In this document: positions 29,166-56,272 of the stretch, one piece after another
Layout: each line of letters begins with the position of its first letter
How positions within the stretch are numbered: position 1 is the first letter of the stretch
NCBI GenBank assembly: GCA_965223325.1
Contig: CBDCWI010000002.1
Coordinates: 864,001 to 928,000, forward strand
DNA from: Candidatus Multivoradales bacterium
GTDB lineage: Bacteria > Acidobacteriota > Thermoanaerobaculia > Multivoradales > Multivoraceae
Length of the DNA: 64,000 nucleotides
Reading direction: 5' to 3'
Program-made: the position numbers and the translations under genes
Notes under the pieces: model-generated
Databases searched by the model: none
The model's input: the letters and a program-made list of their open reading frames with translations, nothing else
Told to the model about the DNA's origin: nothing

Positions 29166-29359
29166 TACGCAACAGGTACCGGCCAGGTTTCAAACGAGGC
29201 GGGCATCGTGGCGCGGCGGCCCAGGCTTCCCTCCAGAGACCTCCGAACCACCGTTCCAACGAAGGCACGAATCCGCGGCGCGCGACCAACGAATCGAAGT
29301 CTCATCAAGCACCATCAGGGCGGAAACCACAGCAGGCAACACCCGCAACGGACCGCTTG

Positions 29360-31269
29360 GATACGCCGGGATAAACCGGCATGGAGAAAGGAATGAGAGA
29401 GTCCCACCCTCGAAGGGGTAGCGACCCAGAGGGTCCCCGAGTCATGCGCCGGCTCCCGCGAGGGTGCGGTGAAGCGTTGACAGGGGCACACACAGGCCGG
29501 GTATTGAGCCGCGAAATAAGAATTTGGGAGTGCCGACGCTGTCAAGCGAAGCGGAAGGCGAGACTCCGTAGCGCGCTATCGCGAGCTCTGCGGCGACTCC
29601 CCGCGGTCGTAGACCCTGTGCATGTGTGGAATCTCCATGCGCGAGAACCGGGAGATCCGCGATCTGGCCAGTTGGGTATCTGGTCCGCATCGGGAAGGCT
29701 AGAGGCCGTAAGCCGATGACGCACGGATGGCGGAAGTCAGACAGGCCCGTAGTACCTGCGAAGTCGTCGAACAACGGTGGGAGACCAGCGGCGGAGGCGG
29801 TGGAGGGAAGGGGCCTGGCCAAGGGGAACACGGGCAAGCAAAACGCACCCCGGACACAGAGCCGGATGGAGAGTGCGAGCAATGCGCTGGGCCGTGTACG
29901 AGAAGCCGCCCGCAGGGGCAAGGAAGTGAAGTTCACAGCGCTTCTTCACCACATCACGGTCGAGCGACTCCGGAGCGCATTTGACGTGTTGCACCGAGAC
30001 GCAGCGGCAGGAGTGGACGGAGTGTCATGGAGCGAGTACGCAGAATCTTTGCTGAGCAATCTCGAGGACCTGCACTCTCGTGTCCACCGTGGGAGCTACC
30101 GGGCGAGTGCGACTCGTCGCGTCTACATCGAGAAATCGGATGGGCGGTTCCGACCGCTTGGCATCGCCACGTTGGAGGACAAGATCCTTCAGCGCGCCGT
30201 CGTCTCGGTGTTGGATGCGATCTACGAGGAAGACTTTCTCGGGTACTCATACGGATTCAGGCGAGGCCGCAGCCAGCACGATGCTTTGGATGCGCTATTC
30301 GTTGGAATCACAAAGCGGAAGGTGAACTGGGTGCTCGACGCAGACATTCGTGGGTTCTTCGATGCCCTGGACCACGAGTGGCTGGTGAAGTTTCTCGAGC
30401 ACCGTATCGGAGACCGTAGGATCCTTCGCCTCATCCAGAAATGGCTGAGGTCCGGAGTGATGGAAGACGGTAAGTGGCACGCGAGCACGCGGGGGACTCC
30501 TCAGGGGGCGACGATTTCGCCTCTCCTCGGGAACGTGTACCTGCACTACGTGCTCGATCTCTGGGTCCAGCAGTGGAGGAAACGCAACGCGCTTGGGGAC
30601 ATGATCTTCGTGCGCTACGCGGATGACTTCATCGTTGGATTTGAGAGGCAGGAGGAGGCAGAACGATTCCTCGAGGAACTGAACCTGCGACTCCGTGACT
30701 TCTCGTTGGAGATCCAACCCGAGAAGACGCGCCTGCTGGAGTTTGGCCGCTTTGCGGCCTACAACCGACGCGCGCGAGGTCTCGGGCGGCCGGAGACCTT
30801 CGAGTTTCTAGGCTTTACGCACTGCTGTGCGCAGTCTAGTCGAGGGAGGTTCTTGCTGAAGCGCATCACGAGCCGCCACCGAATCCGCAGGACACTGAAG
30901 GCTGTCGGTACGGCCCTTCTGGGACACCGACACTCGCCGCTACCAGAGCAAGGTCTCTGGCTGGGATCCGTGGTGCGAGGCTTCAATGCCTACTACGGCG
31001 TACCCGGCAACTCAGCGGCGTTGAACGCCTTTCGACAGGAGGTCATTCGGCACTGGATGCGCGCTCTGCGCCGACGCAGTGACAAAGACCGCACGTCCTG
31101 GAAACGGATGTGGGCCCTGGTGGCCCACTACCTACCCAAAGCCCGAGTCCAACATCCCTGGCCTGATGAGCGACTTGTCGTCAATACCTGAGGCAGGAGC
31201 CCAGTGCATTAGCAGTGCACGCTGGGATCTGTGCGGGGGGCGCCGGGCAACCGGCGCTCCTACCGCGAT
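29360..31269 (+). mobile_element. Group II intron (IIB-type, RT/maturase without endonuclease)
   Basis: Boundaries fixed by the uninterrupted repeat copies (GACCGCTTG|CGCCGCAAAG). EBS1 CAAGCG (29543-29548) is complementary to IBS1 CGCTTG (29354-29359). DV has the AGC triad (31198-31200) and AC bulge; DVI has a bulged A at 31262 (-8); the intron ends in AT. Confidence 0.95.
29716..31191 (+). CDS. ltrA: Group II intron reverse transcriptase/maturase
   Basis: RPLGI..LEDK, SYGFRRGRSQHDA, DADIRGFFD, GTPQGATISPLL, RYADD, FLGF; X domain present, no HNH; stop just before DV. Confidence 0.95.
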   Translation: MTHGWRKSDRPVVPAKSSNNGGRPAAEAVEGRGLAKGNTGKQNAPRTQSRMESASNALGRVREAARRGKEVKFTALLHHITVERLRSAFDVLHRDAAAGVDGVSWSEYAESLLSNLEDLHSRVHRGSYRASATRRVYIEKSDGRFRPLGIATLEDKILQRAVVSVLDAIYEEDFLGYSYGFRRGRSQHDALDALFVGITKRKVNWVLDADIRGFFDALDHEWLVKFLEHRIGDRRILRLIQKWLRSGVMEDGKWHASTRGTPQGATISPLLGNVYLHYVLDLWVQQWRKRNALGDMIFVRYADDFIVGFERQEEAERFLEELNLRLRDFSLEIQPEKTRLLEFGRFAAYNRRARGLGRPETFEFLGFTHCCAQSSRGRFLLKRITSRHRIRRTLKAVGTALLGHRHSPLPEQGLWLGSVVRGFNAYYGVPGNSAALNAFRQEVIRHWMRALRRRSDKDRTSWKRMWALVAHYLPKARVQHPWPDERLVVNT

Positions 31270-31917
31270 CGCCGCAAAGGTGATCAGTAGCAGGCGCCGT
31301 GGTAACGACCCAACGCATCTGCGAGGTCACCGCCCCACACCCACCGCAAGCCAGACGGAGAGCGCCAACCAAAGGCCGCTACCACGGCACCGACAGGCTT
31401 CCCTCCAGAGACCTCCGAACCACCGTTCCAACGAAGGCACGAATCCGCGGCGCGCGACCAACGAATCGAAGTCTCATCAAGCACCATCAGGGCGGAAACC
31501 ACAGCAGGCAACACCCGCAACGGACCGCTTGCGCCGCAAAGGTGATCAGTAGCAGGCGCCGTGGTAACGGCCCAACGCATCTGCGAGGTCACCGCCCCAC
31601 ACCCACCGCAAGCCAGACGGAGAGCGCCAACCAAAGGCCGCTACCACGGCACCGACAGGCTTCCCTCCAGAGACCTCCGAACCACCGTTCCAACGAAGGC
31701 ACGAATCCGCGGCGCGCGACCAACGAATCGAAGTCTCATCAAGCACCATCAGGGCGGAAACCACAGCAGGCAACACGCGCAACGGACCGCTTGCGCCGCA
31801 AAGGTGATCAGTAGCAGGCGCCGTGGTAACGACCCAACGCATCTGCGAGGTCACCGCCCCACACCCACCGCAAGCCAGACGGAGAGCGCCAACCAAAGGC
31901 CGCTACCACGGCGACTG

Positions 31918-34125
31918 CTACAACCGTTCTTCGATGAACTCCGTCATACGACGGTAGAGGTCGTAGACCAGGTTCGGGTCGCGCACGCCGTGGCGGGAGC
32001 GCGGGTAGACCATCAGGTCGAAATCCTTGCCAGCCTTCTGGAGCGCGTAGACCAGTTGGACGGTGTTCTGGAAGTGGACGTTGTCGTCCATGAGGCCGTG
32101 CAGAATCAGCAGGTCTCCGTGCAGGTTCGCGGCCGCCGCGGCGACCGAGGTACCGGCGTAGCCCTCCTTGTTGTTCTGCGGCCGCGCCATGTAGCGCTCG
32201 GTGTAGATCGTGTCGTAGAGGCCCCAATCTGTCACCGGCGCGCCGGCGATTCCGGCCTTGAAGCTCTTGCTGTGGGTCAAGGCGTAGGAAGCCATGAAGC
32301 CACCGTAGCTCCAACCCCAGATGCCGATGCGCTCGCTGTCAACCCATGGCTGCTTGCGCAACCACGCGATGCCGTCTTCGATGTCTTGCAGTTCGATGAC
32401 GCCGAGCTGACGGTAGGCCTTCCAGGTCGGCGCAATTCCCTTGCCGGAAGCCGAGCGGTTGTCGCACATCCAGATCACGTAGCCGCGCTGCGCCAGCATC
32501 TGGTGCCACAGATAGCGATCACCGCCCCATCGGTTCTCCACCACCGGGGCGTGCGGGCCACCATAGTTGTACTGCAGAACGGGGTACTTCTTCTTGGCGT
32601 CGAAGTTCGGCGGCTTGATGAGCGAGGCCTCCATGACGAAACCGTCGCGAGTCGGAACCTGCAGAAACTCGATGCTGCCCCAATCGAAATCGGCAAGCGT
32701 CGCGGGACCTTCGGTGTCGAGTTCGGCCAGTACCGAGCCGTCGGCACTGTGGAGACGCAATTGCCAAGGCGTCGACACGTCACTCCAGGTGTCGAGGTAA
32801 CGCTTCATGTTCGGCGCAAAACGCACGCGGTGGTGGCCCGGACGCTTCGAGATGCGCCTGCGCGCGCCGTCGGCGAGCGCGATGCTCCACAGTTGACTGC
32901 CCGTCGGTCCGGCCTCGGTGGTGTTGATGTAGGCGACTCCGGCTTCCTCGTCGACACCGTGCAGGGTTTCGACTTCCCACTCACCATCGGTGAGCTGCTC
33001 GAGCAGGCGGCCTTTACGACTGTAGTGGTAGAGGTGCTGGAAACCGGTGCGCTCTGAAAGCCACAGGAACGAACCGTCGGCCAGCCACTCTGGCTCACCC
33101 GTGACATTGACGAACGCCGGCGATTGCTCTCTGAACAACCGCTCGACTTCGCCTGTCTCTGGGTCGGCCAACAACAAATCGAGCCAGCGCTGCTCGCGAT
33201 CCTGAACCTGGACAACGATGCGATCACTCTCAGGAGTCCAACCGACCCTGACGATCAGATGTTCGATCGGCAGGTACTCGCTGGTATCGATCCAACGTGG
33301 TTCACCGCCGGTGGCATCGACCACCGCTAGACGAACGGTGGGGTTGGGACTGCCGGCCTTGGGGTAGTTGGTGACTTCGAGATCGAGCTCGGTGGGCAAA
33401 TGATCTACCACCGTGAACTCGCGCACCGGCGACTCGTCGAGCTGGATGAAGACCAGTTGAGAACCGTCGGGACTCCACCAATAGCCGCGGAAGTTGCCAC
33501 GACCGTAGACCTCCTCCTGATAGACCCAGTCGAGCCGACCATGAAACAGCTCGGGGCCGCCGCCCTCGGTGACCTGCCAACTGCGCGCGGTCTCGGGGTC
33601 GGCGAGCCAGAGGTCGTTGTGACGCACGAAGCTGACCAGGCGACCGTCGGGGCTCCAGGCGGCTTCATGCTCGACCGCTTTGTCGGTCGTCAGTCGTACT
33701 GCGCGCTCGCTGCCACGCCGCCAGACGAACAAGTCATTCGAGTGCTCGAAGAGGACCGCGGAACGATTCGGAGCCAGGGTCATCGGCCCAGCGACCATCT
33801 CGGCCGCGCGCTTGGGTCCGAGCCCCGGAACCGCCACAAGGGCCTTCTCTATCGCCCTGGGCTCGAACAGCGGTACGGCTTCGAGGTCCTTGCCCTCGAG
33901 CAGCCAGAGGCCCTTCCCCTGTGAGCCGGACCGGCGCTCCCCCAGACTTCCATCGTCGAGCCAGGTGAGCTGCCTGGTGGCACCGTCGAACGACTTGCGC
34001 ACGGCGTCGTCCGGGCTGAACAACATCTCGACATCCAGGTGCCTGTCCTCTGCGGCAGCGATGGTTGGAAGGAGCACCAACACAACGGTCGTCAGCACGG
34101 CTCGGCCGGTTCTGCGTCCGGTCAT
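31918..34125 (-). CDS. S9B dipeptidyl peptidase IV family serine peptidase, secreted
   Basis: DWVYQEE, GWSYGG, DDNVH, RHG catalytic motifs; beta-propeller N-terminus; signal peptide. Confidence 0.93.
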   Translation of the reverse strand: MTGRRTGRAVLTTVVLVLLPTIAAAEDRHLDVEMLFSPDDAVRKSFDGATRQLTWLDDGSLGERRSGSQGKGLWLLEGKDLEAVPLFEPRAIEKALVAVPGLGPKRAAEMVAGPMTLAPNRSAVLFEHSNDLFVWRRGSERAVRLTTDKAVEHEAAWSPDGRLVSFVRHNDLWLADPETARSWQVTEGGGPELFHGRLDWVYQEEVYGRGNFRGYWWSPDGSQLVFIQLDESPVREFTVVDHLPTELDLEVTNYPKAGSPNPTVRLAVVDATGGEPRWIDTSEYLPIEHLIVRVGWTPESDRIVVQVQDREQRWLDLLLADPETGEVERLFREQSPAFVNVTGEPEWLADGSFLWLSERTGFQHLYHYSRKGRLLEQLTDGEWEVETLHGVDEEAGVAYINTTEAGPTGSQLWSIALADGARRRISKRPGHHRVRFAPNMKRYLDTWSDVSTPWQLRLHSADGSVLAELDTEGPATLADFDWGSIEFLQVPTRDGFVMEASLIKPPNFDAKKKYPVLQYNYGGPHAPVVENRWGGDRYLWHQMLAQRGYVIWMCDNRSASGKGIAPTWKAYRQLGVIELQDIEDGIAWLRKQPWVDSERIGIWGWSYGGFMASYALTHSKSFKAGIAGAPVTDWGLYDTIYTERYMARPQNNKEGYAGTSVAAAAANLHGDLLILHGLMDDNVHFQNTVQLVYALQKAGKDFDLMVYPRSRHGVRDPNLVYDLYRRMTEFIEERL

Positions 34126-34265
34126 CTTCTCGTCTCCTCTGCAGTCCCAGGGACGTTGATCGCACCCTTTGGATGGTTCGGTCTAAGGCTAGCGGCCTGG
34201 ATACTACCGCCGCCGCGGGGACGAGTCCCGCTGACTCACCAGATCGGTAATAGCATGGGGCTCTC

Positions 34266-35012
34266 ATGCGCGAAACCAACCGAAGACGCTCTGGCAGTCG
34301 CTGGCTGGCAGCCTGCGGCGGCTGCGCCGTCATCGGCCTCATCCTGCTGGCGATCTTCGTCTTCCTCGGTTACCGCGCCGCCTCGAGTGTGACCAACGCG
34401 CTCGAAGGTGGCGCGGCTAGTGAGGCGACCGCCCGTTCTATCCTGGCGACCGACCAGTTGCCGCCCGGTTGGCGATCGACGACCGCCTTTCGCTCCTCGC
34501 TGGTTGGAGAGTTCGTCATCCTGACCGACGCGCCCGACGATCCGAGCGACTCGACTGCTGACGGCGGCGAAGTGCTCACCGGCGAGGCGGCAGCCGAGGC
34601 CGTCGAGATCGCGATCACCGATGCGGTGAAGGACGGTGGCCGCCTGTTCATCTACTTCCGCACCCGCGGCATCTCGACCCTGCTCGCCGGCAGTGGCGAC
34701 GGCAAGCTCGAGGCCACCGGCATCGAAGTCGACGAAGGCGGCGAGCTCATCGCATCGGGAACGTCGCGCATTCGCTCCGGCAACCTCGAGTGGGAAGTCT
34801 CGCGCGGAACCTTCACCATCCAGGACCGCAAGCGCCAGGGCACAATCACACGAGCTGACGTGCGCTGCGACGCCGACGATCACCCCCGACTGGCTCTCCT
34901 CGTCGAGCCGGAGAGTCGCTCAGCACAGAAGACCCGAGGTAACGAAGAACCGCCCGCCGATCCGGACGCGCTGTCCCGGCTACTCGACAGTTTCGCGCTC
35001 TGTCCTCCCTGA
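34266..35012 (+). CDS. Hypothetical membrane-anchored protein
   Basis: N-terminal ACGGCAVIGLILL TM anchor; genome-like codon usage. Confidence 0.65.
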   Translation: MRETNRRRSGSRWLAACGGCAVIGLILLAIFVFLGYRAASSVTNALEGGAASEATARSILATDQLPPGWRSTTAFRSSLVGEFVILTDAPDDPSDSTADGGEVLTGEAAAEAVEIAITDAVKDGGRLFIYFRTRGISTLLAGSGDGKLEATGIEVDEGGELIASGTSRIRSGNLEWEVSRGTFTIQDRKRQGTITRADVRCDADDHPRLALLVEPESRSAQKTRGNEEPPADPDALSRLLDSFALCPP

Positions 35013-35096
35013 AGAATCATTTGCCCCCTGACGAATCCTTGGCGACGAACAAAGCCCGGGCGCAACGACGCGCAGTCTTGGAGATCTCGAAGGTCC

Positions 35097-35885
35097 TCAG
35101 GGCGCGACCCATCGCGAGCGCCCGCGCGCGCGACAGATGCTTGCATCGCGAACCTCGTGGCCGAAGACGCCCTCTTTGCCCCCATCGAAGCTGCTCGAGC
35201 GCAGTTGCTCTCCGGCGTCGACCTCACGCAGGAACCAGAGTTCGAACTCGGCGAGGCGTCGGTCCCCGACCGCGTCCTCTGGAAGACTCTCTAGCAACCA
35301 GTCGATGTACCAGGCGTTGTTTGCGTGACCCACCCGATCGAGGGCGGCCCGTTGGACGACGAAGTCCAGGCTCCCCAGCGGCTCGCCGCCCATCGCTTTG
35401 GGTGTCTCGGCGAGTCCCGGAGTTCCGTGAGTGAACCGTGGCGCCACGCGTGCGCTCGGAGTGATCGCACGTACCCGATCTGGTAGACGCGCGAGCCGCC
35501 GGGTCGCCAGGTTGACCATCACCCACTCACTGCTGGCCTGTCCCAGAGCCTCACCGTTCGGGGCCCGCCAAGCGAAGTGACGGTGCGCCACCAAACGATC
35601 GAACCTGGTTGGCCAGGTCGCCAGTTCGAGAGCATCCGCCAGGAAAGACGGGCGCAGAACCTCGACCCGTAGACGTCGCAACACCCAGGCCAGACCGTCG
35701 TCGGCTAGCGAGTCCATCGACGCTCCGAGCGCGCGGGCGTGGGCACCGGCCAGGTCCTGCAGCCAGTTGAGGATCACCCGTGGCGCCACGCTGCCCCGCC
35801 GATCGACGTCGTAGGAGCGCACTTCGACGGCTCGCGACACCTCGCGTGGTCCCTCCGACACCTCCCCTGGCGACAACCCAACCAT
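35097..35885 (-). CDS. Acyl-ACP thioesterase (double hot-dog fold)
   Basis: VRSYDVD, LAWVLRRL, LDRVGHANNAWY. Confidence 0.85.
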   Translation of the reverse strand: MVGLSPGEVSEGPREVSRAVEVRSYDVDRRGSVAPRVILNWLQDLAGAHARALGASMDSLADDGLAWVLRRLRVEVLRPSFLADALELATWPTRFDRLVAHRHFAWRAPNGEALGQASSEWVMVNLATRRLARLPDRVRAITPSARVAPRFTHGTPGLAETPKAMGGEPLGSLDFVVQRAALDRVGHANNAWYIDWLLESLPEDAVGDRRLAEFELWFLREVDAGEQLRSSSFDGGKEGVFGHEVRDASICRARGRSRWVAP

Positions 35886-36103
35886 AGACTCGACCCCCGA
35901 CTCACTGTTGCCGATGTTGACGATATATCCTAGAATCCATAGAACTAGAGGCGCCTGTGCTCGTCGGTAGTTTCTACCGAATCGAGTCTTTCGCCTGATT
36001 CGGACACAACAGTTGTTGTTCGCTGGGGGTTTCCCGCATGATCCATATCGCACCCGAACGGCTGCCCTTCCGCATTCTTCTGAGAGATCAGGAGTGGCCG
36101 CAG

Positions 36104-36550
36104 ATGCCCCTCGAGTTCGATGCGCTACGAGCACACAACGATAACGCCTCCCCTGCCAAGGGGCGAAAGTCCGGTAGTACCAGGGCCCATGTCCTGGTCG
36201 TCGAAGACGACCGAGCGGTCCTCGACCTTGCAGCGACGATTCTGCGCAACGAAGGCTTTGAGATCGTCACTGCCCTCGATGGCGCGGAAGCCCTGGCGCT
36301 GACCGACGAGCAGATCGCCTCGATCGATCTTCTGGTCGCCGACGTTCAGATGCCCGACATCGACGGTCCGACGCTCGCCGAACAGCTGGTCAGACGGGCA
36401 CCGATGCTCAAGGTGATGTACATGTCTGCCTGGGTCGACCCGATCTCGAGCTCGCCCACGGTTCCGCTAGACAGCGACTTCCTTCCCAAGCCGTTTGGCT
36501 ACGGTGAACTGGTCGCCAAGGTGCGCGAGAGCCTCCAGGTCAGCGCCTGA
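36104..36550 (+). CDS. Single-domain response regulator (REC)
   Basis: VLVVEDD, LLVADVQMPDIDG, MSA, FLPKPF; AGGAG RBS. Confidence 0.88.
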   Translation: MPLEFDALRAHNDNASPAKGRKSGSTRAHVLVVEDDRAVLDLAATILRNEGFEIVTALDGAEALALTDEQIASIDLLVADVQMPDIDGPTLAEQLVRRAPMLKVMYMSAWVDPISSSPTVPLDSDFLPKPFGYGELVAKVRESLQVSA

Positions 36551-36607
36551 GCCGCGGGACTCTAGCCAGCCGCTACCTTGGCTCCCGGCCACCTGCCCTT
36601 CTGGCGG

Positions 36608-37604: not shown

Positions 37605-37694
37605 TAAGTCGGTACGGAAATCTACCCCTCTCTAGAACCCCATAAACATTGGGTTTTGAAGGGTTTGAGAGTGTTCCACTACCTCGTGAATTGG

Positions 37695-45860: not shown

Positions 45861-45980
45861 ACACCAGCACCCGGCTCCGCTGCAGAGCGGCAGAGGGGCT
45901 CAAACGACCGCCAACACGGTCCTTCCGCCTCCCGCGTGACAGCTCGAGCCCCGGTTCTGCGGTTCGGCGGTTCGGCTCGC

Positions 45981-47474: not shown

Positions 47475-49951
47475 GGGTTGTCCTGACGGAGAGTCGGAGC
47501 GTTGGTAGGAGCGGCGGTGAGGAGATCCTGGCTGCGTTCTGCTTCGGATTGCCAGACCGAGGTTAGACCAGCCGCTTCGACGCCGCGCGAATCAGACAGC
47601 AACTCGAGCGCCCGTCGTGGGCGACCGAACTGGCGCGCTACCTGTGCCGCCTGCAAACGAGCGGCTGGTGCACTGGACGGACCGACGTTCTGGTAGAGCG
47701 CGAGCACTCGATCGTCACCCGGAACCGGCTCAACCGCAAGCTCGTTGCTGGAGGCCCAGATCTGTTGCCCCGCTGTCGGCTGGTCATTGAAGCAGAGCGC
47801 CAATCGAGCGCGAGCACGACGGAGAGCCGGCAGGGCATCGGTAACGCGCACCAGCAGCTCCTGGCCGCGCCGGCGAGTCTCTTCGTCGCCGAGGGGTCCA
47901 TCCGCCAGCTGGCATAGCGCCGTTCCGAGAACCAGATCGGCGCTCGCGCGATCGAACAGCCGATAGAGCTCCGCTTCGCGACCGGCGTCGCCGGTTGCTG
48001 CCAGGAGACCGAGTACATAGGGCTCACCGGGCGACGCGGTCAACGCCTCGCGGAGCTTCGCTTCGGCCCCGCTCCGGTCTCCGGCCAAAAGAGCAAGACG
48101 CGCCAGCCACACCGCCGGCTGAGAGCTCAGCCGCGCACCGCGACTGAACTCGAACGACGAGCCCTCAAGCTCTTCGAAGAACGCCCGGGCCTCTGGTCCG
48201 CGACCACTGAGTGCCGCGAGGACCGCGCGATCGAAGCGGCGTGACGGATCGCGCAGATCGAACGGCCCGACCGCGAGCGCCGCGGCAGCGAGACTGCCGT
48301 CAGAGACGGGCACGCCGGCAGGCCGCACCTGGTCGACCAGGGCGGGAGCGATGTGCGCGGCCAGCACGGTCTCGAGGCTGGCGGCTTGGGTTTCTCCGGC
48401 ATCACGGTGGAACTGTGCCAGTCGCGAGCGCGTCGAGGCCGCATGCCCCGCCCGCACGCTCCACTCCGCGTCGGCGAGCCGAGCATCGACCGGCCACAGG
48501 GCGAGGGTCACGACGACGATCGCGATGAGCGCCAGCCACCGCCGCCGTCGGTCGGCCCGCGCCAGCTGCTGCCAACCGAGAGCCGCCAGTAGAACGACGA
48601 GGGGCAGGAGCGTCAGGCGTTGGCGTTCGGAGACGTAGAAGGCGAGCATTGCGGCGACCTGAACCGCCGCTAGAAGGAGAATCAGAAACCACGAGCGCCA
48701 CCTTTGAAGCGCGGTGGGCAAACCAACGGCCGCCGAGACAATCAAGAACGGGATCGGCAGCAGAGGAAACGGCAGGGCGCGCTCTCGAATCTCGGCCTCG
48801 TAGACGTCGTGAAACGCCAGTCGACGAGCGATGGCGGCTGCCTTATACAGCTCGATGCGCAACCAGCGGAGCGGATGCTCGCGCACAAAGGCCAGGCCCT
48901 TCTGGCGCCAGAACCGATTGACCTCCGACACCGTGAGGGCCTCGCCCGCGGTTGCACGGGCAATGGCGCGGTAACTGACGTGTGGATGATCGACGGTCGC
49001 CCCCAGGGCCGGGTCGAGCAGCTCGCTCTCGATCTCCTCCACCGCCAGCGGGTACGAGCCACTTCGCCCCCACGACACCGGGTTGTTGCCCTCGTAGAAG
49101 ACGGTCCCTGGGTTCATCACCGTCGGCGTCCACTCGCCGATCGCGCGCTGATTGCGCACCGTCAGAGCCGCCAGCAGGAGCACTGGGGCCAAAAGAAAAA
49201 GACCGGTGTGCACGACTCCCCAGCCGACCGGACGGATGCTGCGCGAATCGACTCCGCTAAAGACGTCGCCTTCGCCGGCGCGTTCATGACCAACCTTCTG
49301 CCGTTCTCCAAGAACGAGCCACAGGGGCACGAACACCAGGGCCGGCAGGAGGGTCGGGCGGGTCGCGATCGCTGTGGCACACAGCACCCCGGCAGCGAGT
49401 GCCCACCAGCCGCTGGCGCGTGCGGTGGCCACCGCCTGCTCGACAGTCACCAGGAGCGCCACTACCAGGAAAACCATGACCGCCTCGGGTTCGAGAATCG
49501 GCGCGTAGATGACGACTCCCGGTGACAACAGAAACGCCAGCACTCCGCACCAGGCGATCCACCACCGTCGGAACCGTCGTCTGAGCAGCCACCAGAGTCC
49601 CGCTGCCGCCAGCGCAACGAGGATCGTTTGCAACCACTCGACGGCCAGGGCGCGCTGGCTCGCATCTTCGGGTTCGGCCGTCAGCACCAGCCGATGGAGC
49701 GCCAGGTAGGCCGGACTGAAATCGACCAGGCGCTCGGCGGGCATCGAACCGGCGGCGAACTCCAGGGCGGCGGTGCTGTACTTGGAGAACGGTTCAATGC
49801 GCGTCGGCAGACCGGTCAGAGAGTCGAGGCGTGGCGCCTCGGTGACCCGGTCGAGGGTGCGCAACCAGAGAGTGCTCACCAGGGCGATGGCGAGCATCGC
49901 GAGTCCCCGGACAACGCGGTCGCGGGTTCTCGGTTCCACGGGCACACTCAT
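47471..49951 (-). CDS. GT-C fold membrane glycosyltransferase (PMT/ArnT-like) with C-terminal TPR-like repeats
   Basis: Multi-TM; FSPAY, EPE, TRP, FYEGNNP, FYVSERQR; helical C-terminus. Confidence 0.75.
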   Translation of the reverse strand: MSVPVEPRTRDRVVRGLAMLAIALVSTLWLRTLDRVTEAPRLDSLTGLPTRIEPFSKYSTAALEFAAGSMPAERLVDFSPAYLALHRLVLTAEPEDASQRALAVEWLQTILVALAAAGLWWLLRRRFRRWWIAWCGVLAFLLSPGVVIYAPILEPEAVMVFLVVALLVTVEQAVATARASGWWALAAGVLCATAIATRPTLLPALVFVPLWLVLGERQKVGHERAGEGDVFSGVDSRSIRPVGWGVVHTGLFLLAPVLLLAALTVRNQRAIGEWTPTVMNPGTVFYEGNNPVSWGRSGSYPLAVEEIESELLDPALGATVDHPHVSYRAIARATAGEALTVSEVNRFWRQKGLAFVREHPLRWLRIELYKAAAIARRLAFHDVYEAEIRERALPFPLLPIPFLIVSAAVGLPTALQRWRSWFLILLLAAVQVAAMLAFYVSERQRLTLLPLVVLLAALGWQQLARADRRRRWLALIAIVVVTLALWPVDARLADAEWSVRAGHAASTRSRLAQFHRDAGETQAASLETVLAAHIAPALVDQVRPAGVPVSDGSLAAAALAVGPFDLRDPSRRFDRAVLAALSGRGPEARAFFEELEGSSFEFSRGARLSSQPAVWLARLALLAGDRSGAEAKLREALTASPGEPYVLGLLAATGDAGREAELYRLFDRASADLVLGTALCQLADGPLGDEETRRRGQELLVRVTDALPALRRARARLALCFNDQPTAGQQIWASSNELAVEPVPGDDRVLALYQNVGPSSAPAARLQAAQVARQFGRPRRALELLSDSRGVEAAGLTSVWQSEAERSQDLLTAAPTNAPTLRQDNP

Positions 49952-50030
49952 CGGCCACACTCTACTTGGAGATGCGCGAATCGACCGACCGCGCGCCGGC
50001 TGCGCCCCCCGAGGCCGGTACACTGCGCGC

Positions 50031-52178
50031 GTGAGAAGCCAGCCGAAAGATGCCCGCCGCCGGCCCCGTTCTAGGACCGTCCAGCGAGCCGCCTTTGCCG
50101 CCGCGCTCGGCGTGTCGTCTCTCCTGCTGCCTGGGTTGGCGGCGGAGAACATCGACCCGCTGCGCGGCTTCTCGGCCGCCGAAACGGTCAAGCAACGAGA
50201 GCTCGAGGAGCGCTACCGCAGCCTCACGCCGGGAAGCGAACGCTTCCGCGAGCTCCTCGAGACGCTGACCCGGGCGCCACACCCTGCGGGCAGCGCCGCC
50301 AACCGAGCCGTCGCCGATGTCATCGCCAACACCATGGCGAAGGCGGGACTAGAGGTCGAGCGCTATCCCTACGAGATCTATCTGCCGCTTCACGATCAGG
50401 CTTCCGCCTCGGTGGCACTGGTGACTCCTGAACGCTTGCCGCTCAATGCGATGGAGAACGTGCACCCGGCCGACCCCTACTCTGCCCATCCCGACCTGCA
50501 CGGGGGTTGGAACGCCTACTCAGCATCCGGTGAGGTCACCGCGCCAGTGGTCTACGCCAACCATGCACGACGCGAAGACTTCGAACAACTGGCTGAGATG
50601 GGAGTCGAGGTCGCCGGCAAGATCGTTATCGCGCGCTACGGTGGCAACTTTCGTGGCTACAAAGAAAAGTACGCCGCCGACGCCGGAGCCGTCGGGCTGG
50701 TGATCTACAGCGATCCCCGAGACGGCGGCTACCGTAGCGGTCTCGAGTGGCCCGAAGGGCGCCACCTCGACAGCAGCACGATCCAACGCGGTTCGATCCT
50801 CACCCTGCCTTGGACCGGCGACCCCCTGACTCCCTTTGAACCTGCGATCCCTGAGGGCGACCCCCAGCGTCTCGACGTCGGAGACGTCGACCTGCCAACC
50901 ATTCCGGTCACCCCGCTTCCCTGGGGGTCGGCCAGGGAGATCCTCGAACGCATGCAGGGCCTGCCCGCGCCGCGCGACTGGCAAGGTGCCCTGCCCTTTA
51001 CCTATCGGCTGACAGGTGGTGAAGAGCTCACGGTGCGGCTCGCGGTCGACCAGCCTCACGGCATGGTGACGGTCGAGAACGTCGTCGGCTTCCTGCGCGG
51101 TCGCTCGGCACCTGACGAGTGGGCGGTTCTCGGGTCGCACTACGACGCCTGGGAGTTCGGCGCCGTCGATCCCAACGCCGGCACCGCGATGTTGCTGCTG
51201 GTCGCCGAGGCTCTCGGCCAACTCGCCAGTGACGGTTGGCAACCCGAGCGCTCGATCGCGATCGCGCATTGGGACGCCGAAGAGTTCGGCATTATCGGTT
51301 CGGCCGAATGGGTCGAGCAGTTTCGCGACACGTTGACCAGCGGCGGCGTGCTCTACCTCAACGCCGACGGCGCCGTCTCCGGCGGACGCGTTTCGTCGTC
51401 GGCGGCGCCGCCGGTCAAGCAGGCGATCATCGACGCCATGGCGGTCACGGCAACCCCTTCGGGCGAGTCGTTCCAGGAACGCTGGGAGCGCCAGAACGGT
51501 CGCGAGCTCGGCCTAGAGAGCTTTGGCAACCTCGGTGGCGGTTCGGACCACGTCGCCTTCACCACCCACATCGCGATGCCTGCCGCGGGAATCAACGTGT
51601 CGTCCTCGGCGCCGATCTACCACTCGGCCTACGACAACTTCGCCTGGTACGAAAAACACGCCGATACAACCTTCGAGCACGGGCCGGCTCTGGCGCGCCT
51701 CGACGGCACCCTGGCACTTCGTTTTGCCAACGCGACGCTGATTCCCTACGACCTTACCGCCTACGCCGAAGATCTCGACCGCCACACGCGCGCGCTCGAG
51801 AAGCAAGCGGGGCGCGAGTTCACCGACCTCCGGCGTGCTGCTGATCGACTCCGCCGGGCAACTCAGGCGACGGCGCGCAAACTCGCCGCCACTCTCGAAC
51901 GCCCGCTGAGCCAGGCGCGCGCCGCAGAACTCAACCGGCTGCTGCTCGAGATTCCGCGCACACTCGCGCACGACGACGGCATGGGGTTCGGCCCCTGGTA
52001 TCGATCGCTGTGGGCATCACCAGACCCAACCAGCGGCTACGCCTCGTGGATGCTGCCGGGAATACGCTGGGCACTCGATCAGGGAACCGGAGTCGATACC
52101 GAAGAGGCGCGCCTGGTCCGAGCGCTCGACGAAATGACCGCCCGAGTGCGCGAGCTCAACCGGCGCGCGGGCCCCTGA
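50031..52178 (+). CDS. M28 glutamate carboxypeptidase II-like peptidase (PA + M28 + TfR dimer)
   Basis: GSHYDAW, GAVDPNAG, WDAEEFG, YLNAD, GGGSDH, YHSAYD; start approximate. Confidence 0.9.
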   Translation: MRSQPKDARRRPRSRTVQRAAFAAALGVSSLLLPGLAAENIDPLRGFSAAETVKQRELEERYRSLTPGSERFRELLETLTRAPHPAGSAANRAVADVIANTMAKAGLEVERYPYEIYLPLHDQASASVALVTPERLPLNAMENVHPADPYSAHPDLHGGWNAYSASGEVTAPVVYANHARREDFEQLAEMGVEVAGKIVIARYGGNFRGYKEKYAADAGAVGLVIYSDPRDGGYRSGLEWPEGRHLDSSTIQRGSILTLPWTGDPLTPFEPAIPEGDPQRLDVGDVDLPTIPVTPLPWGSAREILERMQGLPAPRDWQGALPFTYRLTGGEELTVRLAVDQPHGMVTVENVVGFLRGRSAPDEWAVLGSHYDAWEFGAVDPNAGTAMLLLVAEALGQLASDGWQPERSIAIAHWDAEEFGIIGSAEWVEQFRDTLTSGGVLYLNADGAVSGGRVSSSAAPPVKQAIIDAMAVTATPSGESFQERWERQNGRELGLESFGNLGGGSDHVAFTTHIAMPAAGINVSSSAPIYHSAYDNFAWYEKHADTTFEHGPALARLDGTLALRFANATLIPYDLTAYAEDLDRHTRALEKQAGREFTDLRRAADRLRRATQATARKLAATLERPLSQARAAELNRLLLEIPRTLAHDDGMGFGPWYRSLWASPDPTSGYASWMLPGIRWALDQGTGVDTEEARLVRALDEMTARVRELNRRAGP

Positions 52179-52191
52179 CACCAGAGGGCCA

Positions 52192-53202
52192 ATGAAGAGA
52201 ATCCTCGAGGCCAGGCCGTCGCGCCAACTGCAGCGCGCGCTATGGGGCGGGTTGGTCCTTGCGGCCACGGTGACCTCGCCCGTGGCCGCCCAACCAGAAC
52301 CGCGCCCGAGTCCTACCCGCCCTGCCGAGGCCACGGGACACTCCGCGGAGGCTCCTTCACTCTGGCAACGCGGCACAGCAGCGTGGCAGGCGCGCGCGGA
52401 GAATCATCTGGGCGGCCGGGCGGCCCCGGGACCTATACGGCGAGCCGTCGTGGCGTATCGCGAAGCCCTGGCCATCGAGCCCGACAACCTCGGCACGCGT
52501 ACGCAGCTCTTGCGGGCGCTGTTCTTCGAAGGCGAATACGTACCCATGGACGTAAACGCGCGCAAACGCATCTTCGAGGAGGGGCGCACCGTCTTCGAGA
52601 AGGGCGTCGACCAGTTCGCCGACCGTCATGGCGGCCGCAAGATCTGGAACCGGCTCCCTGCCGAGGAGGTCATCGATCGCTTGCGCCAGGAAGAGGACGC
52701 TCAGGCCGTCGGTGAGTTCTATTTCTTCGGTGCGATTCACTGGGGCCTCTGGGCGCGGTACTTCGGCACCATGGCAGCACTCCGACGCGGCGTCGCGGTC
52801 AGGATCCGCGACAACGGAGAGATCGCCCGTACCCTCTACCCAACCCAACACGACGCCGGACCGCTGCGGCTGCTCGGGCGCATGCACGTGATCGCGCCGC
52901 GGGTTCCGTTGTTCACCGGTTGGATCAACCACCGCCACGGTCTCGAGCTCCTGCGAGCGGCCCATTCCCAAGCGCCCGAAGACCCTCTCAACCGCTTCTT
53001 CCTCGCCGAAGCGATCCTCGAGGTCGACAAGAAGCGCCGCAGCGAAGCGTTCGCGCTCATGTGCTCGGCACTTTCGATGGAGGTGCGGCCGGGCCGGACC
53101 GTCGAAGACATCGATGCCATCGCGCGCTCACGAACGACGCTCCAGAAGTGGGTCGCGCGCGAGCGGCGACGTGGGCGGACGCTTCCGTGCAATCCAGAGT
53201 GA
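52192..53202 (+). CDS. Secreted TPR-like protein (TatT-like)
   Basis: Signal peptide; helical repeats; DAGPLRLLGRMH..APRVP. Confidence 0.55.
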   Translation: MKRILEARPSRQLQRALWGGLVLAATVTSPVAAQPEPRPSPTRPAEATGHSAEAPSLWQRGTAAWQARAENHLGGRAAPGPIRRAVVAYREALAIEPDNLGTRTQLLRALFFEGEYVPMDVNARKRIFEEGRTVFEKGVDQFADRHGGRKIWNRLPAEEVIDRLRQEEDAQAVGEFYFFGAIHWGLWARYFGTMAALRRGVAVRIRDNGEIARTLYPTQHDAGPLRLLGRMHVIAPRVPLFTGWINHRHGLELLRAAHSQAPEDPLNRFFLAEAILEVDKKRRSEAFALMCSALSMEVRPGRTVEDIDAIARSRTTLQKWVARERRRGRTLPCNPE

Positions 53203-54113
53203 AGGACCACTCGGCGAGCGCGGTGCGGGGCCCGGACCACACGTGTGCCTGCTGCCAGCAGAGCCTGCAGCCGGCGTTCGAGGTCAACCGCCATCAAGTG
53301 ATGGAGTGCTCGCAGTGCGGCCACCAACAACTCATAGCGCTCGAAACAAGCGCTGCGCGGCGGAAGTTGATCGCTTCGATTTATGACGATCGCTACTTCG
53401 CGGGCGGCGGCGACGGATACCCCGACTATCCGGCCGAGGAAGACCAGCTCCAGGTTCGCGGTTCACAGTACGCCCGGGTGCTCCGCCGTCATGGTCATCG
53501 CCAGGGTCGCCTCCTCGACGTTGGGTGTGCCGCCGGGTTTCTGCTCGCCGGCTTGACCGCCGAGGCAACCACCGACTTCACCGGCCTTGGCATCGATCCG
53601 AACCGCACCATGGTCGAACTCGGACGCAAGAGGGGTCTCGACCTCGAGGTCACAACGCTCGAAGACCTCGGCGCCGAGACCGAACCCTTCGATGGCGCGC
53701 TCCTGGTACAAGTCATCGCGCACTTCGACCGACCGCAAGACGCCCTGGCTCGCCTCGCAACCAGGGTAAAAGCCGGCAAACCCGTGCTCGTCGAGACCTG
53801 GGATCGGCATAGCGTGACCGCCAGGGCGTTTGGAAAACGGTGGCACGAGTACAGTCCGCCGAGCGTGCGCCACTGGTTCACCCGCACCAGCCTCGACACC
53901 CTCATGACCCGTACCGGTTTCGAGCACCGTGCCAGCGGACGCCCGTCCAGGCGACTGCGCCTCGCGCACGCAGCATCGCTTCTCGGCCACAAGCTCGGTT
54001 TCGCCCGCGATGGAAAACTAGTGGCCTGGACCCGGCGGATTCCCCAATGGGCGTGGCTGCCGTACCCCGGTGACGACCTCTTCTGGGCGCTCTACGAGCG
54101 TCGCGAGCCGTAG
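53199..54113 (+). CDS. Class I SAM-dependent methyltransferase with N-terminal Zn-ribbon
   Basis: CACC..CSQCG, LLDVGCAAG; GTGA overlap with the upstream gene. Confidence 0.82.
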   Translation: MKDHSASAVRGPDHTCACCQQSLQPAFEVNRHQVMECSQCGHQQLIALETSAARRKLIASIYDDRYFAGGGDGYPDYPAEEDQLQVRGSQYARVLRRHGHRQGRLLDVGCAAGFLLAGLTAEATTDFTGLGIDPNRTMVELGRKRGLDLEVTTLEDLGAETEPFDGALLVQVIAHFDRPQDALARLATRVKAGKPVLVETWDRHSVTARAFGKRWHEYSPPSVRHWFTRTSLDTLMTRTGFEHRASGRPSRRLRLAHAASLLGHKLGFARDGKLVAWTRRIPQWAWLPYPGDDLFWALYERREP

Positions 54114-54126
54114 TACCGCTACTCGC

Positions 54127-55440
54127 CTACTCGTCGGGGGCCGCGAGCCGCGCGCGCCGCTCAGCAAGACTCTTGGGCAACAGGATCCAATAGCGCCCGC
54201 GCCCCTTCATGCGCCCGGCAAGGTCGGCCGCGCGCTCGCCAAAGCCGAAGAACACATCACCGCGCACCGGACCGCGAATCGCACCCCCGGTGTCTTGAGC
54301 AACCATCAACCGGCGCAGTCGAACGTTCTCACCAGGCAAAGGAAGCGGCTGGTCGGGAACCGCAGGTTTCGGCATCCGCGTGTCGAGCCAGATGGGAACC
54401 CCCATCGGCAAGAACCGGCGATCCACCGCGAGCGAGCGGCCGGCAGTGAGCGCCACGCCCTGACTCCCGAGCGGACCGTCTCCCCTCAGTTCGCGAAAAA
54501 ACACGAAGGAGCGGTTGAGATCCAACAGGCGATCGAGCTCCTCGGGGTTGTCTTCGAGCCACCCCCGAATCGCCTGCATCGACATGCGCGGACGCGGCAC
54601 CTCGCCCCAGTCGATCAGCGCCCGCCCAACGGCAAAGTACTCATGCCCGTTCTGCCCGGCATAACCCACCCGCATCTGGGTTCCGTCTTCGAATTGCACG
54701 CGTCCAGAGCCCTGCACATGGAGAAAAAACACATCGACCGGATCGTCGACCCACACCAACTCGAGACCGCGCCCGCCGAGCGCACCCTGCGCGATCTCCG
54801 CCCGATCGAAGTACGGCACAAAGCGCCGACCAGCGATGCGCCCGGCCACCTTGCGACCAGCAAGGTCGTCACGAAAGGCACCGAGCTCGACCGTCACCAT
54901 GTCGCGCGGCGGCCGATAGAGCGGAAAACGATAGCGCTCTGTCTGGATCCGCGAACCAAAGAGCAGAGGCTCGTAGTAGCCGGTGAACAACCCCATCCCG
55001 TCGTCACCATCGAGCGCTCGAAACGGCCGGAACCACTCCTCGAACAAACCTCGCGCCGCCGCATGATCCGTCGCATCCCCAGCCAGCACCGCCCGACATG
55101 CCGCGCGCCAGTCACCCATGCGCCCACCCACCTCTCGAGGCTTGAGCTCTCGATGGTCAGGCACGAGGGCAAAGCGCCGACAACTGCGCTGCAGTGCGGC
55201 CAGCGCAAAGCCATGCTTGTCGCCTTCCCAGCCCGGCAGGTCGGCCCAGACCTCCGGCCGCAGATCCAACCGCACCTCCCCCTTCTCCTCTTCCGCAGGA
55301 GGCACCACCAGCTGAGCAATCTCTCCCTCCGCCTCGGCCGCGACTCGCACTGCCCGATCGCGCGCCAGCAACAGCAGCACCGTCGAGATCGCCACCAGCG
55401 CCAACACCCGCCACCAATTCACCCGCAGCTCAGCCACCAA
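54127..55440 (-). CDS. mltA: Membrane-bound lytic murein transglycosylase A
   Basis: FTGYYEP, FFLHVQGSG, RSLAVD, QDTGGAIRGPVRGDVFFG, AGRMK. Confidence 0.92.
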   Translation of the reverse strand: MVAELRVNWWRVLALVAISTVLLLLARDRAVRVAAEAEGEIAQLVVPPAEEEKGEVRLDLRPEVWADLPGWEGDKHGFALAALQRSCRRFALVPDHRELKPREVGGRMGDWRAACRAVLAGDATDHAAARGLFEEWFRPFRALDGDDGMGLFTGYYEPLLFGSRIQTERYRFPLYRPPRDMVTVELGAFRDDLAGRKVAGRIAGRRFVPYFDRAEIAQGALGGRGLELVWVDDPVDVFFLHVQGSGRVQFEDGTQMRVGYAGQNGHEYFAVGRALIDWGEVPRPRMSMQAIRGWLEDNPEELDRLLDLNRSFVFFRELRGDGPLGSQGVALTAGRSLAVDRRFLPMGVPIWLDTRMPKPAVPDQPLPLPGENVRLRRLMVAQDTGGAIRGPVRGDVFFGFGERAADLAGRMKGRGRYWILLPKSLAERRARLAAPDE

Positions 55441-55540
55441 GAAACCTCAAATCGCGAACGATCGATATAATTCACATTGATTTCCGTTCCCCTCGTGCCC
55501 AACAGACCAACGCCTCACCAGGCAGTCGAAAGGTTCTCCC

Positions 55541-55807
55541 ATGGCTTTCCCCGGCGGCAGCGCCTACACCATGTCCCACCAGATCTCCGAAGGCTACATC
55601 CTGGTCACCGATCGCACCTGGTCACGGATGAACAAGCAAGAACTCGACAAGCTCACCTTCGAGTTTCAGAAGCTACTGCGTGAGTTGCGCGCCAACCAAC
55701 CAGACGGCGACGACACGATGGCCATTCAAAAGCGCAACCGCAAGATCTCACGCGTCAACACCTCGATGTCCATGCTGAAGTCGTATCGCCTCCGCCGCAA
55801 GGTGTAG
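55541..55807 (+). CDS. Small hypothetical basic helical protein
   Basis: 88-aa ORF with strongly genome-like codon usage; no motif recognised. Confidence 0.75.
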   Translation: MAFPGGSAYTMSHQISEGYILVTDRTWSRMNKQELDKLTFEFQKLLRELRANQPDGDDTMAIQKRNRKISRVNTSMSMLKSYRLRRKV

Positions 55808-56272
55808 CGGGGGCCATGGTGGTGCGGCCTCTGTGAAGCGTTGCGTGAGCGGGTAGCGCGTTACGGTTGGGGGTGCGACCGCGCGATGTCGGTGCGTGGT
55901 TACCATGGCCCCCGCTACCGTCACTCTTGCGGCGCAAGCGCTACATAGCGCGGGCCGAATGCCTCGGCGCACGCCCTGCTGCTCCCCTCGATGCCTTCGA
56001 AAGACCGGCGCGCGCCGCGGATTCCGGGCTCCGTTGAAACTCCTGTTCCGTGCTAACGCCCGCCGTCCTGCCAAACCTGATGGGTTTCGGCCTCTGTGAG
56101 GCCTTGCGTAGGCGGGTAGCGCGTTACGGTTGGGGGTGCGACCGCGCGATGTCGGTGCGTGGTTGCCATGGCCCCCGCTACCGTCACTCTTGCGGCGCAA
56201 GCGCTCCAACCCGCCGGCCGACCACCTCGGCGCACGCCCTGCTGAGGCCACCGATGCCTTCGAACGGCCGGC
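55804..56272 (+). repeat. Array B: about 1.8 diverged tandem 263-bp units, homologous to array A
   Basis: GGGTAGCGCGTTACGG at 55851 and 56114; perfect 17-bp inverted repeat 55804-55820/55902-55918; shares TTGCGGCGCAAGCG and CGCGCGCCGCGGATTC with the array A minus strand. Confidence 0.9.

Follow-up and report, generated by a model that had tools for sequence, protein, structure and literature searches.

How small extragenic repeats such as REPs, BIMEs and PATEs choose their sites and multiply is still an open question. Among the closest described systems, IS608 inserts 3′ of a tetranucleotide that is retained, and the element can be retargeted by engineering the base pairing on the 3′ side of its left hairpin (PMC5934647). 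GTAG REPs often supply TAG stop codons and are reiterated in tandem along with flanking DNA (PMC3733652), while double-foot REPs are described with a tag and its complement at their two feet (PMC6006769). The repeats considered here form two tandem arrays in the window, that is, the whole 64,000-nt stretch of DNA that was analysed.

An earlier note had described both arrays. Their periods were measured as 262 (array A) and 263 (array B), and their units align with 70% identity over 178 nt. The near-equality of the periods is incidental, since periods range from 96 to 360 across 36 arrays. Each array opens with a GTAG in which the TAG doubles as the stop codon of the upstream gene, and the head hairpins with their compensatory changes proved to be real. 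Array A lies on the minus strand behind a gene for an S9/DPP-IV peptidase (31918–34125), and the element arm pairs with the final coding base of this gene and with its TAG (31918–31920). Its head hairpin H1 (31811–31921) consists of an 11-nt outer arm (31911–31921; one host base, the stop and seven element bases), a conserved 6-bp core (31905–31910 with 31822–31827) enclosing a 77-nt G/T-rich loop, and a complementary arm (31811–31821) with one mismatch. In unit 1 (31651–31912, period 262) a second long-range helix, H2 (31709–31799; arms at about 31793–31799 and 31709–31715), was recognized by covariation. Unit 2 (31389–31650) lacks the outer 5′ arm and differs from unit 1 at 2 positions in 253 nt. 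What had been read as a continuous array at 29222–31921 is in fact three units, the third being split by a group II intron (29360–31269) into a 5′ half (31270–31388) and a 3′ half (29222–29359). Array B lies on the plus strand behind an 88-aa ORF (55541–55807; no Pfam or NCBIfam match), whose TAG (55805–55807) is paired in the same manner. Here H1 (55804–55918) has an outer arm at 55804–55814, a core (55815–55820 with 55902–55907) around an 81-nt loop and a perfectly paired complementary arm at 55908–55918, and H2 of unit 1 (55929–56018) pairs 55929–55935 with about 56012–56018. Unit 2 (56088–56272) starts inside the H1 loop, is truncated inside H2 and matches unit 1 at 165 of 195 positions. 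The full hairpin is confined to the first unit of each array.

A genome-wide search extended the family from these two loci to about 190 units at 61 loci. Fifty-nine heads (first units) were counted with a scan that tolerated up to 2 mismatches, and at 9 of the 61 loci no head passed it. The first unit begins just 3′ of a real stop codon in 55 of the 59 heads (stop within 14 nt), at exactly 7 nt in 40, which supports the proposal that the repeats are a non-autonomous, structured family tied to stop codons. For ORFs of at least 200 codons this anchoring was found in 33 of 45 cases, whereas the opposite arm gave 1 of 45, and heads are at real stops even though intergenic TAGs that are not stops outnumber TAG stops by 8,016 to 1,767. 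GTAG did not hold up as the family signature: it is present in 13/59 heads, CTAG in 25/59, and the tag is base-paired inside the stem. The element has no terminal inverted repeats and no transposase ORF, carries the palindromes H1 and H2 near its two ends, and has one fixed end and a ragged tail, with a slot of 12 or 13 nt ahead of the tail motif. Tandem units are homogeneous within a locus and diverse between loci, as in BIMEs, and the genes upstream of the arrays are not paralogues of each other.

The internal arm of H1 is Watson-Crick complementary to seven element bases, the host stop codon (TAG, TGA or TAA) and the last one or two coding bases. Pairing at positions −1 to −11 is conditioned on the scan in this genome; position −12, outside the scan window, pairs in 38 of 59 heads compared with 27% across loci, and pairing ends at −13. 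The stop and last codons are of host origin, being native in orthologues of seven tested genes and of the S9 peptidase, whose orthologues in G001, G003 and G010 also end in Leu-TAG without the element. The 7-mer is of element origin and tracks element relatedness (p 0.001–0.002). Moreover, the type of stop follows the tail subfamily, TGA being used by 9 of 13 heads in one and 0 of 42 in the other (p 1e-7). Occupancy could be predicted from the six bases upstream of TAG (leave-one-out AUC 0.89; 8 of the top 20 sites occupied vs 45 of 1,767), and this signal is present at silent positions too, which speaks against selection on the peptide as the only reason for the aromatic C-termini. Nearest-neighbour elements do not significantly share the two target bases (p 0.08 and 0.15), and carriage of the upstream flank by sister elements was unsupported over positions −3 to −10 (p 0.07–0.42).

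The H1 arms covary across the family, and H2 covaries as well. The structural signal comes from this covariation rather than from single-copy folding, in which whole units score only slightly better than shuffled sequences (z −1.5 to −2.1). Within the 32 nt that follow the tag, only 20 of 59 heads reach a folding energy below −5 kcal/mol, and the short-loop form of the relatives is a self-contained hairpin of the 20–40 bp type. G-U (G-T) pairs occupy 1 of 649 arm cells. Because they are nearly absent, the alternative that the repeat is a 3′-UTR structured RNA under ordinary selection fits poorly, although a host function stays conceivable in view of the loci at which the repeat has been kept in more than one genus. 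It is unlikely, though worth weighing, that the repeat is a domesticated 3′-end structure under selection (an mRNA stabilizer, terminator or translation-coupled hairpin), with the 7-nt spacing reflecting the terminating ribosome and mobility being ancient or secondary. Such a role would suit the sense orientation to the host gene, which is without exception, the convergent gene that comes next after 30 of 59 heads (33% genome-wide), and the arm pairing kept although the repeat is old and star-like, with long terminal branches (median 0.29). It would also suit the finding that three genes (LivM, a Dabb-like protein and YchF) have a head in each of two genera; among g10 genes whose best match here is at least 55% identical through the C-terminus, shared-gene heads were found at 3 of 5, the base rate being 63 of 4,895. 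However, these shared loci could reflect repeat hits on preferred targets. One-sided (wobble) changes occur in 0 of 832 cells, array B has no U-tract terminator, the element is missing from 44 of 45 orthologous gene ends, neither short-loop patterns nor BLAST recovered it from G001, a genome of the same genus, and there is a young burst in G014, all of which argue against domestication.

Short-loop relatives of the element were found in 5 of 56 family genomes. Early searches missed them because the long-loop form was assumed: BLAST with a long-loop query found the repeat in 0 of 40 genomes, and the TAG long-loop pattern gave 1/300 matches, a chance coding match. A covariance model hit 8 of 140 genomes at 20–23 bits, compared with 177–235 here, and these hits were judged noise; an overly loose GTDB pattern returned 102 loci, none real; and metagenome patterns gave 0 and 1 matches, the one by chance. 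Of 58 other genomes hit in a further search, most were coding noise. Plasmids held no match to the repeat, and Rfam had none to the element at the gathering score, either in the window, where the intron alone matched, or at 4 relative loci. Among the relatives, nine young copies with 3–4 nt of internal mismatch pair 17 of 18 host bases at −11/−12 (permutation p 5.5e-4), these copies being kin rather than independent and some of their ORFs perhaps shadow frames. Part of the target region is unmatched in five relative heads, one of them a young TAA copy. In 3 arrays among 10 loci examined, tandem copies of the young relatives restart at the first base after TAG.

We put the probability at roughly 0.5 that the repeat is a non-autonomous single-stranded DNA element whose arm serves as a target guide. 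Its two hairpins would make up about 62 nt while the element is young and its loops are short; in this genome the length is about 230 nt, the loops of H1 and H2 appearing to have grown to about 75–80 nt. The element would move as folded single-stranded DNA, with its 5′ end joined directly 3′ of the host stop. The arm 3′ of the H1 core would pair with the element's first seven bases and then with the stop and one or two coding bases, acting as a short guide, and an AT-rich context with G or T four bases before the stop may add preference. After insertion both arms would be homogenized, tandem arrays would be built by local copying from the head end, and the group II intron would home into H2. 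Our guess for the enzyme is an HUH/Y1-type protein acting in trans; none was found. Several results count against this reading: no transposase gene is linked to the repeats, no empty allele or circle came to light, the heads lack the replication-strand bias of IS200/IS605, nearest-neighbour elements do not significantly share the two target bases, some relative heads are partly unmatched, and the LivM heads of two genomes differ in their 7-mers. As a tentative extension, the family may be a natural, reprogrammable system of DNA-guided insertion at stops: the two-hairpin element would read the last codon and the stop and therefore land where no protein is broken, guide changes would retune it between TAG and TGA, and enzyme-driven, one-directional strand displacement from the head would yield arrays and rewrite the silent sites of neighbours.

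A different account of the same mobile element, doubtful in our view, holds that the arm is no guide: template switching, at insertion or later, would copy it anew from the host flank, and the target would be set by a protein or by the exposure of single strands where genes end. The almost purely Watson-Crick arms agree with this, the variable slot before the tail motif resembles an imprecise join, and sister elements with one 7-mer have differing target bases, each matched. At LivM, the heads of G010 and G015 carry different 7-mers, each fully compensated, and arms must therefore also be rewritten after insertion; arrays and skew likewise indicate repeated local handling of DNA. Contiguous copying should, however, erase the internal mismatch, which the nine young copies retain while the host bases beyond it are matched. 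Moreover, downstream tandem units are not rematched to their local flank, and the dependence of stop type on subfamily is hard to reconcile with rewriting.

Further analysis revealed a footprint beyond the arrays. Genes facing a tail carry a one-strand C>T/A>G skew that fades over about 1 kb (p 3e-8 after correction for replication strand; 0 of 10,000 relative to convergent controls). The effect is modest per locus, 3 of the 45 most skewed windows lying within 150 nt of a tail, and a head-side skew was tested and unsupported. In the window, the 3′ part of a convergent Usp gene (56354–57000) faces the tail of array B, and its silent sites are skewed as in the family-wide halo (C+A 0.67 vs 0.56 in controls). 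Under the guide reading, long exposure of the sense strand would leave this skew for about 1 kb beyond the tail. The heads show no replication-strand bias, 32 of 59 lying on the leading strand as genes do (2,717 of 4,895). Neither an empty allele, a circle nor a precise intron-less joint was seen in four contig sets.

The earlier note had inferred a REPIN/BIME-like element mobilized by a RAYT. The BIME-like homogeneity per locus and the TAG-stop overlap stand; the RAYT assignment does not, the tag being unconserved and paired and none of 28 Y1 matches in this genome or 11 in relatives being flanked by copies. An ordinary RAYT-mobilized GTAG REP of the double-foot type, for which the published habits of such REPs and the many Y1 genes in the genome would speak, is accordingly very improbable and largely refuted: TGA and TAA feet are matched as well, and the repeats that flank the Y1 genes are different ones, in clusters free of skew. 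No Y1 gene lies within the window, as had been noted; one Y1 match is 337 nt from an array and has its own ends, Y1 flanks gave no match to the element ends, and G002 and G009 have the element with no Y1 match. Other linked mobilizers were rejected: IS110 (6 matches, none at an array), an IS91-type element (one fragment), TnpB (no PF07282 match in this genome), the integron integrase (the genome's integron uses a separate canonical attC family) and Ssn (a lone PF01541 match in a 610-aa frame, with no small GIY-YIG gene found and nothing from a motif scan). No recurrent mobile gene was found after the arrays.

The intron in array A (1,910 nt, plus strand) is a self-splicing intron that parasitizes the repeat; it lies antisense to the element and disrupts H2. 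It has the group II hallmarks: a reverse transcriptase/maturase ORF (29716–31191; RVT_1; TIGR04416 342.8 bits, cut-off 300; in-frame ATG at 29716 or 29866), a domain I match (29398–29616), DV/DVI in the last 75 nt or so, and a 6-nt EBS1 (about 29543–29548) complementary to IBS1 (29354–29359). The consensus intron 5′ end is GUGYG (PMC7923331); all 14 full copies in the genome instead have a six-base variant, the boundary being fixed by empty units. These copies, beside which there is one 5′-truncated copy, are 99.9–100% identical, and 13 of the 14 are at one spot in the repeat family, which in unit 1 of array A falls at the 5′ arm of H2. The 10-nt target site occurs 82 times in the repeats and 18–36 times elsewhere, and therefore the intron's specificity needs no structure. 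Since its reverse transcriptase is the sole RVT_1 protein in the genome (14 matches), and the element has a fixed end and a ragged tail, one could suppose a structured RNA retrotransposed in trans by this enzyme. The near-identity of the intron copies beside an old, star-like repeat, the antisense insertion and the lack of G-U pairs make this the least credible explanation; moreover, none of 28 family-f1 genomes searched holds a close relative of the enzyme (E 1e-100). Viral contigs yielded no relative of it either.

The family offers a testable handle on site choice: its left junction is defined, its candidate five-base guide varies naturally, it provides copies of different age and loci common to two genera, and it leaves a mutational footprint on one strand. 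Should the arm prove to be a guide, the system would be a natural version of IS608 retargeting and point to an enzyme that places DNA without scars behind selected genes. Even without a guide, a repeat that skews codon usage on one side for about 1 kb and feeds an intron burst is an unusual genome force.

RmInt1 is a mobile bacterial group II intron that homes into an insertion sequence, and like introns of this type the multi-copy intron here uses a repeated target; unlike theirs, this target is a small non-coding repeat, and the intron 5′ end departs from the usual consensus. No stop-targeted element with a host-matched arm was found in the literature searched, which covered few subscription journals and no supplements, and repeats from these genomes might appear in the REP and Y1 tables published with PMC3733652 and PMC6006769. 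CGTC repeats and the SRM hairpins of Ssn, as described in PMC3733652 and PMC11893778, share a short tag-like motif that comes after the arm and precedes a GC-rich hairpin, whereas the published SRM motif is in 0 of 59 heads. Integron attC sites and IIC-attC introns, as described in PMC7923331, resemble the family in a hairpin that starts with a stop codon, in complementary outer boxes and in an intron inserted opposite to transcription; unlike attC sites, the heads have the invariant attC (R-box) triplet in 2 of 59 cases and follow housekeeping genes rather than cassettes, the genome's own attC family lies beside its integrase, and the intron here uses its 6-nt EBS1. REPs, REPINs, BIMEs and double-foot REPs (PMC3733652, PMC3333891, PMC8266576, PMC6006769) are likewise extragenic, overlap TAG stops, form tandem units alike within and unlike between loci, and carry a tag at one hairpin foot with its complement at the other. 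In contrast to the RAYT/TnpA_REP-linked REPs described there, the feet here follow the end of the host gene and are paired, and the element has a second helix and no cognate RAYT. As far as their ends are described in PMC5934647 and PMC3119063, IS200/IS605 elements and PATEs share several traits with the family: terminal inverted repeats are lacking, each end has a hairpin close by, the left hairpin is imperfect (in the young copies), insertion appears to occur immediately 3′ of a short target that is kept, the first base is often C, and the target may be chosen by base pairing. The family differs from IS200/IS605 in having no parent IS, TnpB match or lagging-strand bias, and its target is a variable, stop-centred 4–5-mer rather than a fixed tetranucleotide. 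Its putative guide is found on the 3′ side of the hairpin core, where its pairing extends the stem without a break, an arrangement that in IS608 is described as engineered only.

Array A (29222-31921, minus strand) was found to comprise three near-identical units, with 1-2 differences per 253 nt, downstream of an S9 peptidase gene; its tail adjoins a downstream PadR regulator and ADOP permease pair (26022-29130), and the permease suggests an acidobacterial source. Array B (55804-56272, plus strand) consists of one full and one truncated unit downstream of an 88-aa ORF (55541-55807) with no matches in Pfam or NCBIfam. Both arrays described in the earlier note are present in the sequence, and its hairpins and compensatory changes were correct. 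Array A is a tandem repeat as claimed, but it does not run uninterrupted from 29222 to 31921, since a group II intron splits the third unit. The repeat family itself is real, and is larger and older than had been supposed.

In the source genome (G000, contigs C1 and C2), an iterated profile recovered 190 units in 73 clusters, which reduce to 61 loci after bridging introns and cover 0.5% of the genome. Heads, the hairpins (H1) of first units, were hand-curated from a scan tolerating up to 2 mismatches per 17 bp, giving 59, of which six fall outside the profile loci. No head passed the scan at nine of the 61 profile loci: one of these represents the distal half of a locus split by an intron, and the others are degenerate, collapsed or headless. 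Collapsed heads at C2:2426875 and C2:3706422 (minus strand) have lost core and loop and kept the start at the stop and the tail. Heads share a conserved 6-bp core pair, with loops mostly of 73-82 nt but also of about 60 and 3-4 nt, and their outer stem varies at almost every locus (54 distinct 11-mers among 59 heads). The arm, or 3' outer strand of H1, pairs at positions -1 to -11 in 97-100% of cases, a figure conditioned on the scan. Position -12, free of this conditioning, pairs in 38 of 59 heads against 27% across loci, and pairing drops to 10% at -13. Non-Watson-Crick combinations occupy only 10 of the 649 arm cells, one of them G-T. Across 32 aligned full heads, 138 double-sided changes (34 ± 4.5 in shuffles) and no one-sided changes were counted, a count that favours the structure because the structure came from the same alignment. 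The second long-range helix, H2, also covaries, with double changes in 4 of its 10 pairs.

For 55 of the 59 heads, a stop codon closing at least 90 codons lies no more than 14 nt away; in 40 the distance from the core is exactly 7 nt. In our own simple gene model, where TAG makes up 36% of stops, 54 heads coincide with gene ends. The stops are TAG (44), TGA (9) and TAA (2). Whatever triplet the stem contains, the arm matches it; the stop test gave 33 of 45, versus 1 of 45 on the opposite arm. Sequence alone is insufficient for this anchoring, because intergenic TAGs that are not stops (8,016) outnumber stop TAGs (1,767). Target genes ending in F, Y, W, I, L or V are enriched (36 of 55 versus 19%), the bias is also visible at silent positions, and the six bases upstream predict occupancy with a leave-one-out AUC of 0.89. 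All three genes with one particular 10-nt ending bear the element. At C2:3795807 (minus strand), 63 nt from the 3' end of the host gene are duplicated just upstream of the head. The first copy ends at TAG; the head's own TAG is not in frame, which an assembly indel may explain. At C1:819943-824161, two heads are sister elements with one common 7-mer (the element bases paired by the arm), and one head is docked 4 nt beyond the stop, where the triplet is not a stop codon but is still matched by the arm.

Orthologues at 45 loci for seven target genes, and at 3 loci for the S9 peptidase, have unchanged or equivalent C-termini and end at the corresponding stop position, so the stop and final codons belong to the host. 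A consensus of their own marks the seven bases that follow the stop, and these bases track element relatedness; they are thus the element's, and the arm therefore spans both. The most economical reading, to which we give roughly even odds, is a non-autonomous element that would join host DNA as a single strand 3' of the stop codon, the arm serving as a short guide. Arms would be homogenised afterwards, and local copying or strand exposure would start from the head. That the arm is instead rewritten, rather than acting as a guide, seems unlikely.

Initial searches for relatives were blind to short-loop forms, the first of which was seen at a LivM orthologue bearing an 18-bp head with a 4-nt loop. 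Of 56 family genomes screened with the short-loop pattern, 5 had heads (both of genus group g2, the one of g9 and both of g10), and a reversed control gave one match; there were no heads in the same-genus genome G001 or in 42 g11 genomes. From 26 loci, 25 heads were tabulated (L335 failed the tail filter, and L312 is listed by its second head), 20 of them after a stop closing at least 90 codons. The G014 and G002 element measures about 62 nt and consists of H1 and a short-loop H2, which shares a 10-nt motif with the source-genome H2; its tandem copies restart at the base following TAG. Nine relative copies, which are kin, have kept an internal mismatch of 3-4 nt; even so, 17 of their 18 host bases at -11/-12 are paired (p 5.5e-4). 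Contrary cases are one TAA copy unmatched at the stop and four heads that miss at -11.

Heads in both genera were found at LivM (G010 and G015, both g10), a Dabb-like gene (TGA in G015, TAG in the source genome) and YchF (G010; degenerate in the source genome). Three of five g10 genes whose best source-genome match is at least 55% identical through the C-terminus share heads (2 of 4 excluding LivM, by which the relatives were found), against a base rate of 63 in 4,895. A sixth g10 gene (45% match) has a source-genome counterpart without a head, and no g2 or g9 locus is common to the source genome. TGA heads in the source genome are confined to a subfamily with a g10-like tail (9 of 13 versus 0 of 42). 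The loci common to both genera leave room for a host function of the element, which we nevertheless regard as improbable.

Arrays, whose periods span 96-360 nt, begin at 36 of the 59 heads. Of their 36 left junctions, 29 lie within -12 to +22 of the core, and there is no fixed junction sequence. In tail-facing genes, four-fold-site G+T on the element sense strand falls with distance, from 0.68-0.69 in the first 300 nt through 0.63 (up to 600 nt) and 0.59 (up to 1 kb) to 0.55 farther out (controls, 0.54-0.56); head-side genes show no skew by this measure. The skew holds for either replication strand (36 of 47 loci positive, p 3e-8) and exceeds that of convergent gene pairs (C+A 0.657 in 22 genes versus 0.559 ± 0.018). 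It is modest per locus, weaker in co-directional genes (p 0.03) and absent at repeats associated with Y1 (HUH-type) transposases. Two-fold sites move as C>T and A>G on the sense strand would predict, the deamination pattern of exposed single-stranded DNA. Other tandem arrays outside the family, with apparently non-coding 90-170 bp units, were seen at, for example, C1:729214, C1:857092, C1:1057915, C2:2521526 and C2:3407533, and local reiteration may be general in the source genome.

The intron in array A (29360-31269; 1,910 nt, strand opposite the repeat; Rfam RF02005, 180.6 bits; TIGR04416) has 14 full copies in the source genome, 99.9-100% identical, plus a truncated one. Of the full copies, 13 lie antisense at a single H2 position, as does the truncated one, and the six-base EBS1 matches the 5' exon. 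Sequence largely explains this homing, because a 10-nt site is present 82 times in repeats compared with 18-36 times elsewhere. The intron was rejected as the source of the repeat and is a recent parasite. Its 5' end (29360-29365) has one extra base and one change relative to the usual five-base consensus in all 14 copies. Some related introns (L192, L194, L197; 56-58% protein identity) also seem odd at their start, their boundaries not being fixed. Opposed arrays or heads converge on an intron at C1:819943-824161 and C2:721795-724315. In runs X5-X7, from three other studies, contigs are mostly at least 99% identical to the intron and mostly lack flanks; one loose contig end matches another repeat locus of the source genome.

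Further mobile elements were observed. The source genome has 28 Y1 matches, including several multi-copy groups, at least one bounded on either side by short G-run repeats of its own; genes of about 320-350 aa cluster densely at C1:2124976-2144090 and C2:4454631-4487830. Two shorter RAYT-like genes each have unrelated repeats of their own on both sides: a 10-nt tandem unit at L001 (C1:1306077) and an inverted repeat of about 20 nt at L351 (G014:C458). At C2:3807261-3829000 an integron integrase (422.7 bits) adjoins a cassette-like region with canonical attC sites of about 85 nt, some apparently interrupted by IS110 remnants; attC-like sites are scattered near C2:4163189, 4401030 and 4484977. 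Adjoining the integrase is a 134-bp tandem repeat of 3.3 copies (C2:3806467-3806908) with an apparent tRNA 3' end inside. Large duplicated blocks at contig starts (C1:1-60543 and C2:1-50264), with three identical tyrosine recombinase genes, are a prophage-like repeat or an assembly overlap. A truncated IS91-type (Y2) transposase fragment has two copies (C2:2115603-2116455 and 2125284-2126135).

No mobilising enzyme and no empty allele were found for the family, and it is not a REP in the strict sense. The left-junction arrangement resembles that of IS608, in which target choice is extended by engineering base pairing on the 3' side of the left hairpin (PMC5934647). The junction is also like that of PATEs (PMC3119063), and the population pattern is like that of BIMEs (PMC3333891) and double-foot REPs (PMC6006769). 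The family works like these systems but does not belong to them, having no fixed unpaired tag, cognate transposase, parent IS or strand bias.
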